The notes: generated from the sequence alone by a model not told the origin. Positions 18,789 through 22,962 are shown, numbered from the stretch's first letter. The stretch is DNA of 64,000 bases from an uncultured bacterium (GCA_963844965.1 CAWJQC010000007.1:160001-224000), one strand, 5' to 3'. Program-made: numbers and translations.

Positions 18789-19687
18789 ACACCCTACACA
18801 TTTTTTGAAACTAAAATGTGTAGGGCTCTTTCTCTCAGTCTCGGCAACCCCGACGTAAAGTCGGGGTTAAAGTCAGCATTGGGATGGTTGGCATTTCCGC
18901 CGCAAGGCGGAAAATTAAGAGCGAATGGTGGATGCCCTTGACATCAAAAGGCGACGAAGGACGCGGCGTAGCGGCGATACGCCTCGGGGAGGTGCGTAGC
19001 AACCTGTGATCCGGGGATTTCCGAATGGGGAAACCCAATTGAGCAAACCTCAATTTTTTTGCCGCAAGGCAAAAAGCAAACCCGCTGAAGTAAAACATTC
19101 CAGTAAGCGGAGGAATAGAGAACTAATGTTATTCCCTTAGTATCGGCGAGAGAAAAGGGAAGAGCCTAAACCTAAGTTTTCGCAAGAAAAGTTTGGTGTT
19201 ATAAGGTAAAAACACTTTGGATATAACGTTGAGCGTTATCCGCCAACGGCGGAGCGGCGACCAGCGTTATATCTAAAAAGGAGTTACAAATTGATTTGTT
19301 AGCCGAAGCCCACTGGAAAGGGGCGCCAAAGGGGGTGATAGCCCCGTAGGCGAAAACGAATCAACTTCTCGTTTTTATCCTTGAGTACTCTGAGGTAAAT
19401 TAGCTTCGGAGGAATTCGCCTGTACTATCAGGCAAGGCTAAATACTTTTGATGATCGATAGTGAACAAGTACCGTGAGGGAAAGGTGAAAAGCAGGCCGG
19501 TGAGGCCGTTGAAATAGAACCTGAAACCATTCGTTTACAAGGAATTGAACCACGAACGTTCTGCCGCAAGGCGGGACGAGTGGGACAATGTGCCTATTGA
19601 AGAATGAGCCAACGACTTATTTTGCATTGCTCGTGTAAGCATCTATAAGATGCGTACGCACAGCGAAAGCGAGTCTTAATAGGGCGA

Positions 19688-19972
19688 AAACCATCTCAAA
19701 TTTTTGGACTGAAAAATAAAAACCGGTCAGTTTTTAGCTGCCGGTCTGCGAGATACCAATTCTTGTTCTAATTTTCTGACCTGAGCGTCCAGTTTTTCTT
19801 GAAGGCCACGATGCCTCAAGTATCTCCTGCCGCTTACGTGCGATCGATGTTTTTTCCTGGTCCAGATGGAATGTTGGGCCACGCAAACTCCTTTTGTCGG
19901 GCGACTGTAGATCTGGAAGGATTTTAGGATGAGCCGAATAGAAAGTCAACAGTCCAAAAATTTGAGATGGTT
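19688..19972 (+). other. 23S IVS-a (~285 nt) at the helix-25 position, flanked by a perfect 21-nt inverted repeat CCATCTCAAATTTTTGGACTG / CAGTCCAAAAATTTGAGATGG
   Basis: conserved 23S sequence resumes on both sides; long perfect stem typical of RNase III-processed IVS. Confidence 0.65.
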
Positions 19973-20479
19973 AGGCAGTGCAACATAGACCCGAAGCCAG
20001 ATGAGCTTGCCTTGGCCAGGGTGAAATCCGCCGAAAGGCGGATGGAGGCCCGAACTGGTGGGTTGTTCAAAACCTTCGGATGAGCTGAGGTAAGGAGTGA
20101 AAAGCTAATCGAATCTGGTAATAGCTGGTTCTCTCCGAAATAGTTTTACGACTAGCGGCGCAGAAAATTTCGCGGGGGTAGAGCACTGGATGATTCGTAA
20201 AGGCCGAAAGGCCGACGAATCAATCAAACTCCGAATACCGCGATTGGAACCTGCGCTAGTCAGACTGCGGGGGCTAAGCTCCGTGGTCGCGAGGGAAAAA
20301 GCCCAGATCGTCAGCTAAGGTCCCTAAATCCATGCTAAGTGTTAAAGGTAGTCTTCTGCCATAAACAGATAGGAGGTTGGCTTAGAGGTAGCCATCCTTT
20401 AAAGAGTGTGTAACAACTCACTATTCGACGGCAGGGGGCGCGAAAATGTACCGGGGCTAAGCATGGTACCGAAGCTACG

Positions 20480-20585
20480 AATTACCTTGTGCTCCGCACA
20501 AGAATTTTCAGGTAATAATTTTCAATTTTCAAATGGTTTGGAAATTGTAAATTGCAAAATTGGAAATTCTCGCGCGCAGCGCGAG
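20480..20585 (+). other. 23S IVS-b (~105 nt) at the helix-45 position; interior is related to IVS-d
   Basis: an insertion lies between GTACCGAAGCTACG and GTAGTGGTAGGAGAGCATTC; interior aattttcaaatggtttggaaattg is similar to 21275-21330. Confidence 0.6.
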
Positions 20586-20885
20586 GTAGTGGTAGGAGAG
20601 CATTCGTATTGCACTGAAGCTCGACCCGCGAGGGCGAGTGGAGCGGTACGAAGAGACAATGTTGGTATGAGTAACCACAATCCCAATGAGAAATTGGAAC
20701 CCCGAAAATCCAAGGTTTCCGTGGCACTGGCAATCAACCACGGGTTAGGCGGCCCTAAGCCGATCCCGAAAGGGGCAGGCGATGGACAGACGGTTAATAT
20801 TCCGTCCCTTCCCTATGGTTATCTGCCGCATGACGGAGGAAATAAGCTTGCGTGCCTTATTGGTTTGGCATGGTTTGCCTCAAAG

Positions 20886-21033
20886 CGTGTCTCACTGCGT
20901 TCGACACTATAGTTAAACAATTTTTCAGTTAACGAGTTGCGAGTTAACGAGTTGAAAACAAAAAACCCGTTAACACGTTAACTCTTTAACTCGTTAATAA
21001 TTAATTATTGGGTGGCGAGCGGAGCGAGGCACG
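20886..21033 (+). other. 23S IVS-c (148 nt) with terminal stem CGTGTCTCACTGCGTTCG / CGAGCGGAGCGAGGCACG; interior made of TTAACG-family repeats
   Basis: 18-bp terminal pairing with 2 mismatches; interior matches intergenic repeats at 4330-4420 and 46880-46960. Confidence 0.6.
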
Positions 21034-21238
21034 TTGGAGGCCGACCGAAGGTTCGGTTTTTACCGGGCCGACGCAGGCGAAGAGCCTTCCAAGAAAAGCG
21101 CGGCGGTCACGCCGTAGAGAATCCGTACCGGAAACCGACACAGGTGGATTGGGCGAGAAGCCCTAGGGGAACGAGTGATTTGCCTCTAAGGAACTCGGCA
21201 AACAAGCGGCCGTAAGTTAGCAATATGGCCTGCCCGAC

Positions 21239-21352
21239 CGTGCCTCACTGCGTTCGGCGCGGAATTTAAAATTTTACAATTTTTAATTTTCAAACTGTTT
21301 GCAAAATTGAAAATTATATATTGAAAATTCCGCACGAGCATAGCGAGGTGCG
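21239..21352 (+). other. 23S IVS-d (114 nt) with terminal stem CGTGCCTCACTGCGTTCG / CGAGCATAGCGAGGTGCG
   Basis: left terminus identical to IVS-c and IVS-g at 17/18 positions. Confidence 0.6.
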
Positions 21353-21479
21353 GTTGGGCCGCAGCGAAAGTCCCTTTGGCGACTGTTTACCAAAAACACA
21401 GCTCCCTGCGAACTCGCAAGAGGATGTATAGGGGGTGACGCCTGACCGATGCGAGAAGGTCAAGGCCGACGGTGCACGT

Positions 21480-21565
21480 AGCACATAGCATGTAACACAA
21501 AACAAGAAAAAATAAATAAAACCTGCTCCATGTTACATGTTGCGTGCTGCGTGTGCTGATTGGCT
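21480..21565 (+). other. 23S IVS-e: expanded helix insertion with inverted repeat GCACATAGCATGTAACAC / CATGTTACATGTTGCGTGC
   Basis: extra ~70 nt relative to the conserved flanks AGAAGGTCAAGG ... GGTAACTATAACCG. Confidence 0.45.
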
Positions 21566-21887
21566 CAAGCCCTCGTCAATGTCAGCGGTAACTATAACCG
21601 TTCTAAGGTAGCGCAATTCCTTTTCGGGTAAGTTCCGAAGCGCACGAAAGGCGTAACGATCAAAGGACTGTCTCAGAGGCAAGCTCGGTGAAAATGCGAT
21701 TCCCGTGAAGACGCGGGATACCTGCAGCGGGACGAAAAGACCCCGGAAGCTTTACTGCAGCTTGGTATTGTTTCTAGGGCTTTGATGCGTAGCGTAGTGG
21801 GGAGCCTTTGAAGCTCCGCTCTCGGGCGGGGTGGAGGCGACAATGAAACACCCATCTTCAAAGTTTTAGCGACTAACCAGTTGGGGA

Positions 21888-21932
21888 CCCTACACTCTCT
21901 AGATAAATTTTGGAAATCCAGAGAGTGTAGGG
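21888..21932 (+). other. 23S IVS-f: hairpin insertion CCCTACACTCTCT-AGATAAATTTTGGAAATCC-AGAGAGTGTAGGG
   Basis: perfect 13-bp stem; its CCCTACAC...GTGTAGGG ends are shared with the hairpin at 18792-18825. Confidence 0.5.
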
Positions 21933-22510
21933 AAACCCAACCGGGACAGTGCTTGGTAGGCAGTTTAAATGGGGCGTTTTCCTCCAAAAAAGTAACGGAG
22001 GAGTTTATTAAGGTCGGCTTAGCCCGGATGGAAATCGGGCAGGACGTGCAAACGCAAAAGCCGGCTTAACTGCAAGGCCTACAAGCCGCGCAGATGCGAA
22101 AGCAGAAGTTAGTGACCCGACCACACATTATAGAATGGTGGGAGACACCGGACAAAAGCTACTCCGGGGATAACAGGCTGGTGAAGTCCGAGAGTCCCTA
22201 TCGACGACTTCGCTCGGCACCTCGATGTCGGCTCGGCACAGCGCGGGGGTGAAGAAGCTCCCAAGCGTTTGGCTGTTCGCCAATTAAAGTGCCACGTGAG
22301 CTGGGTTCAGACCGTCGTGAGACAGGTCGGTCTCTATCTGCTGCAGGCGTTTACACTTGAGGGGAGTTGGCCCTAGTACGAGAGGACTGGGCTGAACTGA
22401 CCTCTGGTCTACCGGCTTTGGTACCAACTGAAGCGCCGGGTAGCTATGTCGGGAAGGGATAAGCGCTGAAAGCATCTAAGCGCGAAGCCTACCCCAAGAT
22501 TAGGTGTAGT

Positions 22511-22648
22511 CGTGCCTCACTATCGTTCGGCACGGTATCGATGCAAATATACTAATCGTACTAATGATGCGAATTTGATTCCATTGGTATCATTAGCATT
22601 CACTTGCATATTGGTATCGATACTCGTGATGAGCGGCAGCGAGGCACG
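22511..22648 (+). other. 23S IVS-g (138 nt) near the 3' end (helix-98 region) with terminal stem CGTGCCTCACTATCGTTCG / GAGCGGCAGCGAGGCACG
   Basis: same terminal stem family as IVS-c and IVS-d; interior is palindromic. Confidence 0.6.
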
Positions 22649-22962
22649 ACAAGGTTTCGTTGAAGACTACAACGCATATAGGCTCTAGGTGTAAGATCCG
22701 TAAGGATTTCAGCCAAGGAGTACTAATAACCTGTTTTGCCAACCATCCCAATGCTGACTTGTGTGCTGTTTTGGAGAACCGCGGTTCGATTCGCTCCAGC
22801 GGCGAATCGCCCGCTGCTTCTCGCTCCGACGGCTCGCTTCAGGCGAGACCAAGCCCGTCGGAGCTCCGAAAGCTTCTCCAAAACAGCACACTGCGTCCGT
22901 TCAGAAAGTTTAGGTGTTTTCGCGAAGCGAAAACAGCAATTTAAAGATTAAAACGACTCTTT

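Follow-up and report, generated by a model that had tools for sequence, protein, structure and literature searches.

A stretch of 64,000 nt from an uncultured bacterium (GCA_963844965.1 CAWJQC010000007.1:160001-224000), referred to here as the window and used for all coordinates, contains a complete bacterial 23S ribosomal RNA (rRNA) gene at 18905–22743 on the plus strand. The gene is 3839 nt long, matches the 23S covariance model RF02541 over model positions 1–2925 with 2254.7 bits, and is 935 nt longer than E. coli rrlH (2904 nt), relative to which it has nine insertions. Three of these insertions, designated c, d, and g, are copies of an element, here called type A, that recurs in stable-RNA genes throughout bacteria of the Candidate Phyla Radiation (CPR). 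The insertions were placed by alignment to rrlH and to the 23S covariance model (Table 1), and every one of them folds as a long hairpin, with z scores of -4.5 to -9.9 against shuffled controls. A first-pass annotation of the window had counted at least seven insertions and suggested the RF02541 alignment. That alignment assigned the insertions to helices, agreed with the model from end to end, and raised the number to nine. One of the nine is merely an 18-nt lengthening of helix 25 (H25) with a GCAA loop, and the annotation's listing of H25 among the intervening-sequence sites was dropped.

The termini shared by c, d, and g are about 24 nt long and read CGUGCC-UCACUnnnGUUC-GGCAC ... GUGrC-GAGCnnnAGCGA-GGCACG. 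At the DNA level, the three insertions start with CGTG(C/T)CTCACT(2-3 nt)GTTCG and finish with GAGC(2-3 nt)AGCGAGG(C/T)(A/G)CG. The common ends are thus as first described, except that g has a one-nucleotide indel (an extra nucleotide) in each arm. Six motif matches were found in the window against 0.42 expected, a number reached by none of 100 shuffles, and the two arms do not occur together anywhere in the window outside the 23S gene. A covariance model of the arms joined by a short linker did not recover c, d, or g whole, and its best matches in the window were unrelated hairpins with E values of at least 0.1; this model leaves out the interior of about 100 nt, and the arms were searched by regular expressions instead.

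Covariation was analyzed in an alignment of 45 arm pairs. The long stem formed by the two arms comprises 24 positions with 85.5% pairing, and in 12 of the pairs both partners vary. Neither the observed pairing nor the covariation was matched in any shuffle, and sliding the partner strand by one to three columns reduced the paired fraction to 25–45%. The three variable outer pairs contain 23 G·U cells and no A·C cells, which indicates that pairing is selected on the sense strand in single-stranded form, not in duplex DNA and not on the antisense strand. Two non-Watson–Crick pairs are nearly invariant, an A·C mismatch at columns 9/48 and a U·G wobble at columns 16/41 (44 of 45 copies each). Single mismatches are found at columns 9/48, 12/45, and 20/37, and the stem has no bulge-helix-bulge geometry. 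Both arms are, in addition, small palindromes (CGUGCC ... GGCACG) that can fold into local hairpins. The 5′-arm hairpin covaries strongly, its pair 5–20 being C–G in 33 copies, U–A in 9, and another combination in 3, and column 20 is mismatched with its long-stem partner (pair 20–37) in 30 of the 45 copies. From the covariation of the long stem and that of the 5′-arm hairpin with its mismatched 20–37 pair, two folds are supported, namely, the long stem and, as the other option, separate small hairpins at the two ends. A two-fold-symmetric protein-binding duplex was considered and rejected, columns 37 and 52 not tracking the changes in columns 5 and 20.

In 119 of 125 copies, the positions immediately flanking the element (-1/+1) form a pair, and the element therefore stacks on a host helix. 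Neither a target-site direct repeat nor a conserved target sequence was found beside the copies; the flanks are complementary, not directly repeated. The interiors average 31% G+C, are hypervariable, and consist of inverted periodic repeats of 7–8 nt that differ between genomes. Two copies of one genome, in a 23S gene (L018, 2576–2719; L-numbers denote public loci fetched by the scans described below) and in an RNase P RNA gene (L028, 788–939), share ATCGTT in the 6 nt upstream and AGCGCATGGG in the 10 nt downstream, and a similar NCGUU ... AGCGN extension is seen in L029, L046, L060, and L086. These shared flanks suggest that the real unit may exceed the conserved boxes by a few base pairs. 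Hairpins of 7–8-nt repeats also lie between genes of the window (4336–4410, 28887–28957, 31853–31940, 43550–43690, and 46873–46945) and lack the conserved ends. Their repeats (TTAACG, GCGAATA, TACGAAA, and AATTTCT) are of the same types as those in the interiors of rRNA elements, both here and in other CPR bacteria.

Public sequences were scanned with a pattern made of the outer 11 nt of both arms, 92–122 nt apart. Matches were obtained in 36 stretches of one-genome-per-species bacterial and archaeal contigs and in 114 stretches of metagenomes, which carries out the search of other genomes for the terminal stem that had been suggested from the window; the contig of the window itself was returned by neither scan. 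The inner arms (...nnnGTTCrrCAC / GTGryGAGCrnn...) were not demanded by the pattern and are nonetheless present in nearly all matches. Those without the inner motif are chance matches, some of them G+C-rich (L004, L007, L014, and L023), the others being L071, L090, and L099. When the central cores were searched in 151 loci and duplicates and three chance matches were removed, about 126 distinct type A copies remained, with lengths of 114–311 nt (median, 136 nt). Judged by flank similarity, 23S genes host about 94 of them, 16S genes about 18, and RNase P RNA genes 11. The remaining few are in rRNA leaders or spacers; for example, one in L037 lies 180 nt upstream of 16S, and one in L084 lies about 900 nt downstream of 16S.

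The insertion sites number more than a dozen in 23S, five in 16S, and at least four in RNase P RNA. In E. coli flank numbering, the 23S sites are the leader, ~131–189, 219–233, 262–305, 517–553 (H25), 652–666, 925–941, 1143–1186 (H45), 1399–1600 (H58 region), 1693–1770 (H63), 1854–1889 (H68), 2088–2224 (H76–78), and 2782 (H98), and the 16S sites are 68–101, 176–243, 439–508, 575–603, and 1126–1147. In RNase P RNA, P3 and P12 are replaced or capped, the helix before the conserved 3′ strand of P4 is another site, and one further site is used. The RNase P RNA hosts are in L015, L017, L022, L028, L034, L046, L048, L060, L086, L097, and L137. RNase P RNA genes were confirmed with RF00010 at E values of 1e-15 to 1e-28; the five checked in this way reached 56–95 bits. 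The gathering score is 100, and the shortfall is evidently due to the insertions, so that standard annotation would miss them.

The family is nearly confined to stable-RNA transcription units. The stable-RNA genes of the fetched loci span about 336 kb and carry about 122 copies, and about 596 kb of other DNA of the same loci contains no copy of the family save the few in leaders or spacers, plus the three chance matches. Relative to the host RNA, 121 copies are in sense orientation and one, which has hybrid arms, is antisense. The named hosts are Paceibacteria/Parcubacteria, Saccharibacteria, Berkelbacteria, Peribacteria, and Uhr-, Sung-, Falkow-, Wolfe-, Nealson-, and Harrisonbacteria, in agreement with the CPR origin assigned to the window at first reading. 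Among the Saccharibacteria, copies are present in L006, L019, and L022. Some loci carry the labels Methylomirabilis or Gammaproteobacteria. The 23S sequence of one of them (L003, labeled Methylomirabilis) is nearest to Parcubacteria sequences (79%, versus 70.7% to E. coli), and this contig is therefore probably mis-binned. For L015 and L017, the Rfam scores of the RNase P RNAs lie far under the threshold, a trait shared with the CPR-labeled loci. From these similarities, the loci with labels outside the CPR are likelier to be mis-binned CPR contigs. A scan of viral contigs with the 5′-arm pattern gave no match. The idea of one family occupying several sites, drawn from a single gene, is thus borne out on a wider scale.

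Copying within genomes is evident from the interiors. Interior identity averages 55% between genomes (95th percentile, 66%) but can be 77–96% for copies of the same genome. The three copies of L021 are 90–96% identical in their interiors, those of L010 are 72–79% identical, two of the three pairs in L011 reach 80–81%, and L009 and L017 share 81%. L018 and L028 come from one Parcubacteria metagenome-assembled genome, and their copies, located in 23S and RNase P RNA, respectively, are 86% identical. Insertion g has a full-length relative in L084, with 81.6% identity in another context. Turnover is equally evident, sites being empty or filled with another type in relatives with 82–86% 23S identity. 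The closest 23S found, L045 (86% identity), lacks insertion c, and its type A copies occupy the ~131–233 site (H9/H10 region), H68, and the H98 region. The c site (H58) is empty in both L045 and L134, and insertion c or d is missing, or its site holds another type, in L045, L066, L134, and others. The tip of H63 illustrates the range: L066, L076, L123, and L134 have a bare GCAA tetraloop there, the window and L109 have type A, L045 and L082 have type B (see below), L052 and L058 have a type B variant (B′, with arms UCUUGUC.../UCUCGCC...), and L010 and L065 have some other hairpin. These data firmly support one superfamily of elements, sense-oriented and specific to the stable-RNA transcription units of CPR bacteria, which is selected as a sense-strand hairpin, copied within genomes, and gained and lost between genomes.

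The superfamily is not confined to type A. Insertion b has the termini CCUUGUGC-UCC-GCACAAG ... CUCGCGC-GCA-GCGCGAGG, which define type B, and five other distinct copies of this type were found, at H25, H45, H63, and the ~270 site. A third variant (L002, L020, and L030) has the 5′ end CGUGCCUCAC-UUU-GUGAGGCACG. All types follow a common plan: each end forms a small hairpin, the strands of the two ends also pair with one another, and the ...CCUyry / GCGAGG... core is shared. Insertion b is thus a relative of type A built on the same plan, and insertion e is perhaps another, its arms (GUGC-ACGUA-GCAC and GCGUGC-UGC-GUGUGC) fitting the plan by inspection. The single insertion family proposed for the gene therefore holds for c, d, and g, with b assigned to a second, related family. 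Two further relationships noticed at first reading were confirmed. The interior of c is built of TTAACG repeats with a period of 8 nt, which are also present in two intergenic hairpins (4336–4410 and 46873–46945), and the interiors of b and d are related over 53 nt (75% identity).

Insertions a and f and the insertion at the H16/H18 junction have no relatives among the fetched loci, save a short match of the last to L045, where it is partly conserved (91% identity over 35 nt). For insertion a, a BLAST search of the 151 loci gave no relatives, and no Rfam family was matched. Its flanking inverted repeat is perfect as reported, but 23 bp long instead of 21 bp. The sites of a, e, and f are nevertheless ones that carry canonical type A copies in other genomes, that of a (652–666) in L010, L062, and L104 and that of e (H68) in eight other loci. 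Within insertion a, a 51-codon open reading frame (ORF) runs antisense to the 23S gene (19727–19882, minus strand), with AAAGGAG located 5 nt before its GTG start and a terminator-like hairpin past its stop. Neither this ORF nor another of 71 codons on the minus strand of insertion a has a Pfam match, the 51-residue product has no homologue, and both are probably noncoding. Nowhere in the insertions was an ORF with a Pfam match or a homologue found. An Rfam search of the whole operon at E values up to 1 returned only generic hairpin matches (microRNA precursors); group I introns, group II introns, and known ribozymes were rejected on this basis.

Here, we suggest an excision model for type A. 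Classical intervening sequences are rRNA insertions whose terminal-repeat stem is cut mid-stem by RNase III without religation (PMC4990558). By analogy, type A elements would be intervening-sequence-like and removed from the precursor by a double-strand RNase, a reading to which we give slightly better than even chances. The element, of 114–150 nt, forms a basal stem from its two ends that prolongs the host helix, and it thus caps a surface helix as a long hairpin. It would be transcribed within the precursor RNA. A double-strand-specific ribonuclease, in the simplest case RNase III, would then cut at the conserved stem. The hairpin would be removed, and the RNA pieces would be kept together by the ribosome with no rejoining; cuts at b, c, d, and g would leave the present 23S rRNA in five or more pieces. 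The element spreads by copying from site to site, and from one RNA gene to another, in the same genome. Removal by RNase III, with a fragmented 23S rRNA as the outcome, is plausible on the precedent of the classical elements, the enzyme and the cut sites being putative. CPR rRNA-gene insertions have been reported to be absent from transcripts (PMC11270868, citing Brown et al. 2015), and the short, ORF-less, non-intron ones among them, which were left uncharacterized, were judged "probably" to be RNase III intervening sequences (PMC11270868). The AT-rich (31% G+C), unconserved interior argues against a structural role in the mature ribosome, and the hypervariable interior and the patchy positions together fit excision better than such a role.

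Several observations weigh against simple excision by RNase III. A plain RNase III substrate needs structure and not sequence, whereas the termini are near-invariant across distant CPR classes. The fixed A·C mismatch and U·G wobble (44 of 45 copies each), the strict orientation, and the restriction to stable RNAs also exceed the needs of such a substrate. The covarying 5′-arm hairpin, with its mostly mismatched 20–37 pair, is left unexplained by a plain RNase III stem and points to a second fold or a different mode of recognition. We know of no precedent for an RNase P RNA that is cut into pieces in vivo. No RNase III gene is among the 36 window proteins scanned, which says little for what is only part of a genome. 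Taken together, the near-invariance, the mismatches, the 5′-arm hairpin, the orientation, and the restriction leave room for a dedicated recognition system or for strand-specific mobility.

Alternatively, the hairpins may be kept as expansion segments in mature 23S, 16S, and RNase P RNA, with the stem acting as a protein platform or being simply tolerated, which we consider rather unlikely. The sites do match the variable regions in which eukaryotic and archaeal (including Asgard) rRNAs carry expansion segments, namely, H25, H31, H45, H63, H78/79, and H98. An invariant stem with fixed mismatches resembles a protein-binding site, and a location in RNase P RNA is easier to understand if nothing is cut; the large helix extensions described in CPR RNase P RNAs (PMC8172020) also count for retention. 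Expansion segments are, however, retained, fixed in position, and usually G+C-rich, whereas type A is patchy, AT-rich, and copied. The first-pass annotation had raised the case of ordinary expansion segments conserved in relatives and lacking shared termini; the termini are in fact shared, and the positions are not conserved in relatives, where the site is empty or holds another type. Interiors that are AT-rich, hypervariable, and copied within genomes behave like those of a selfish element, not like a structural module, and the reported removal of CPR rRNA insertions from transcripts, (PMC11270868, citing Brown et al. 2015), speaks in the same direction. Protein-dependent splicing would allow an intact product, which seems desirable in 16S and RNase P RNA: a CPR endonuclease would recognize the partly two-fold-symmetric stem and a ligase would rejoin the ends, much as for the bulge-helix-bulge introns of archaeal rRNA and tRNA. 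The strict sequence conservation, the fixed mismatches, and the repetition of the boxes CGUGCC ... GGCACG on both strands would suit this scheme. Inspection of the alignment revealed no bulge-helix-bulge (two 3-nt bulges and a 4-bp helix) at the boundaries, and the boxes covary as a hairpin and not as identical half-sites, columns 37 and 52 not tracking columns 5 and 20. To our knowledge, no such system is known in bacteria. No candidate enzyme was identified, and the 36 window proteins scanned include no RNA ligase. We regard splicing of this kind as improbable.

Little weight is also given to a miniature DNA transposon of the REPIN or IS200/IS605-end type, in which the hairpins would be single-stranded DNA targets of a transposase and the ends would be conserved for mobility only. 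As in REP doublets, which are mobilized by a REP-associated tyrosine transposase and consist of two inverted units that are each an imperfect palindrome, the arms of type A are inverted copies of each other and small palindromes themselves. The covariation of the 5′-arm hairpin, the copying within genomes, and the lack of a target-site duplication, as in single-strand transposition, would all be accommodated, and the single-stranded non-template DNA of highly transcribed genes could explain the host range and the sense-only orientation. REPINs and the Correia element of Neisseria likewise have ~100–150 bp, inverted ends, and a long hairpin when transcribed, and RNase III cleaves the transcripts of the Correia element. 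REPs and miniature inverted-repeat transposons are, however, mainly intergenic, and REPINs and Correia elements occur in tens to hundreds of copies in both orientations, the latter with a TA duplication, whereas type A is confined to stable-RNA genes and units, is sense-oriented, and has no duplication. Copies are absent from the ~596 kb of ordinary DNA near the host genes and from the window outside the 23S gene, and no conserved target sequence adjoins the element. No transposase was found near the copies examined or among the 36 proteins scanned in the 64 kb of genome. Moreover, transposition concerns the spread of the element and is compatible with excision at the RNA level. Finally, each insertion might have arisen locally, with ends that are convergent or fortuitous, or be an assembly artifact. 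Template switching is able to make perfect rRNA hairpins (PMC8794818), and assembly error is conceivable for an uncultured source. This explanation is scarcely credible and already contradicted, the same 24-nt ends recurring in about 126 copies from many samples and assemblers and the chance matches lacking the inner motif. An assembly chimera, which had been named as a concern, also disagrees with the end-to-end fit of the 23S gene to its model, and the differing interiors of the three window copies indicate that c, d, and g are not a collapsed repeat. More speculatively, and with a low probability in our estimate, types A and B could together be an unrecognized class of mobile element for the hairpin tips of stable RNAs, moving through a strand-specific single-stranded intermediate (RNA or non-template DNA) with a dedicated CPR enzyme that recognizes the terminal double hairpin; the stem might then also direct a bacterial protein-catalyzed cut-and-rejoin reaction on rRNA and RNase P RNA.

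Returning to the intervening-sequence-like reading, type A resembles the classical rRNA elements in its location at the tips of variable helices (b at H45, c at H58, d at H63, and g at H98), its inverted-repeat stem (~20–28 bp in the classical elements), its AT-richness relative to the host RNA, and its sporadic occurrence among relatives. The classical elements, known from Salmonella, Yersinia, Campylobacter, Leptospira, and Coxiella at H25 and H45 of 23S and occasionally in 16S, are regarded as selfish (PMC4990558). In contrast to them, type A has near-invariant 24-nt ends across a superphylum, occupies more than a dozen 23S sites as well as 16S, RNase P RNA, and rRNA leaders, reaches three or more copies per gene, bears a small hairpin at each end, and has no S23p ORF. 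Small repeats that invade variable rRNA regions are also found among the mitochondrial hairpin and double-hairpin elements of sponges, Allomyces, and yeast (GC clusters), which are suspected to move via DNA or RNA and, in Allomyces, make no target duplication (PMC2800124). These differ from type A in being mostly intergenic and only occasionally in rRNA, and in belonging to one genome lineage instead of a superphylum. Within the CPR, short insertions of under 200–250 bp that are non-intron, ORF-less, common in 23S, and the main type in Saccharibacteria were surveyed by Tsurumaki et al. in 2024 (PMC11270868), and types A and B are almost certainly the same objects. That survey classes them by length and position, without shared termini, sense-only orientation, RNase P RNA copies, or copying within genomes.

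In the literature searched, we found no prior report of the motif or of a CPR hairpin or intervening-sequence element, although most subscription journals were outside its reach and an earlier description is possible. Neither the 2024 survey (PMC11270868) nor a 2021 study of complete CPR genomes (PMC8172020) links rRNA insertions with RNase P RNA extensions or reports shared ends. The CPR accounts for much of bacterial diversity, and insertions abound in its rRNA genes; of these, the ones due to introns and homing endonucleases are the only part explained so far. The "short uncharacterized" insertions now have a defining signature, that of one superfamily found in 16S, 23S, and RNase P RNA and still copied within genomes. 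Excision would mean that many CPR ribosomes, and perhaps RNase P, are put together from several RNA pieces, and retention would mean that an RNA appendage the size of a protein is common to CPR ribosomes. With the consensus, the elements can be masked in rRNA phylogeny and primer design, and sub-threshold RNase P RNA genes can be rescued; it also opens a concrete experiment in cultivable Saccharibacteria.

The 23S gene is part of an operon whose other members are three tRNA-like genes and a 5S rRNA gene (Table 1). As previously noted, the operon lacks 16S, of which there is none in the entire 64 kb. The lack of a 16S gene is common in the CPR, where unlinked rRNA genes are frequent (PMC8172020), and is therefore not a peculiarity of this operon. 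The precursor consists of four successive modules, the tRNA trio (18479–18845), 23S (18870–22760), the spacer (22761–22891), and 5S (22929–23117), closed by stems of 19, 24, 18, and 42 nt, respectively. The inverted repeat recognized around the tRNAs is present but longer than the 15 nt first given, with 19 nt and 95% complementarity. The 131-nt spacer module is strongly structured (z, -8) and includes a T-arm-like sequence, GGTTCGATTC. All three tRNA-like genes have abnormal anticodon loops. The first (18508–18586) has an 8-nt loop, CUGUUCAA; the second (18615–18703) has a Tyr-GUA loop, CCGUAAC, with C replacing the universal U33, and a Tyr-GTA gene with a better score is located at 26653–26736; and the third (18718–18788) has an 8-nt (or 6-nt) loop, CUUGCAAG. 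The trio may serve as processing signals instead of decoding tRNAs.

Table 1. Insertions in the 23S rRNA gene and other features of its operon (window positions; fold energies in kcal/mol; z versus shuffled controls)
Feature	Position	Strand	Size	Placement and structure
Insertion at H16/H18 junction	~19214-19282	+	~69 nt	Hairpin; placed by covariance-model alignment; z -7.0
H25 lengthening	19556-19575	+	18 nt	GCAA loop; not an intervening sequence
Insertion a	19689-19972	+	284 nt	After E. coli ~650; perfect 23-bp closing stem
Insertion b, type B	20487-20585	+		H45; fold -48.1, z -7.1
Insertion c, type A	20886-21033	+	148 nt	Loop (tip) of H58 hairpin; fold -60.8, z -8.2
Insertion d, type A, 12-nt-core subtype	21239-21352	+	114 nt	H63 tip; fold -59.8, z -9.9
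Insertion e	~21482-21550	+	~69 nt	H68 tip extension; z -7.3
Insertion f	21888-21932	+	45 nt	Near-perfect hairpin extending H78; z -6.8
Insertion g, type A, 13-nt-core subtype	22511-22648	+	138 nt	Replaces H98; fold -67.9, z -8.7
Three tRNA-like genes, 5′ of 23S	18508-18788	+		Bracketed by 19-nt inverted repeat, 18479-18497 / 18827-18845, 95% complementary
23S bracketing stem, 5′ half	18870-18893	+		Perfect 24-bp stem with 22737-22760
23S bracketing stem, 3′ half	22737-22760	+		Pairs with 18870-18893
Structured 23S-5S spacer	22761-22891	+		Perfect 18-bp closing stem; fold -77.3, z -8.0
5S rRNA	22966-23081	+		Rfam match; bracketed by 42-nt inverted repeat, 22929-22970 / 23076-23117

The neighboring genes of the window are ordinary housekeeping genes. 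A gene for a tyrosine recombinase of the phage integrase family (5–1108) lies near tRNA-Ala(GGC), and a 44-nt inverted repeat (arms 2737–2780 and 2785–2828, 77% complementary) overlaps this tRNA gene, including its T-arm sequence (region 2737–2878); together, they could mark the border of an integrated element. On the minus strand, one ORF at 60152–61609 combines LexA DNA-binding, S24 peptidase, and N6/N4 DNA methylase domains. The MreB-like ORF at 10422–11006 spans positions 2–159 of the 327 in the Pfam profile, that is, its first half, and the gene may be split, interrupted, or truncated.

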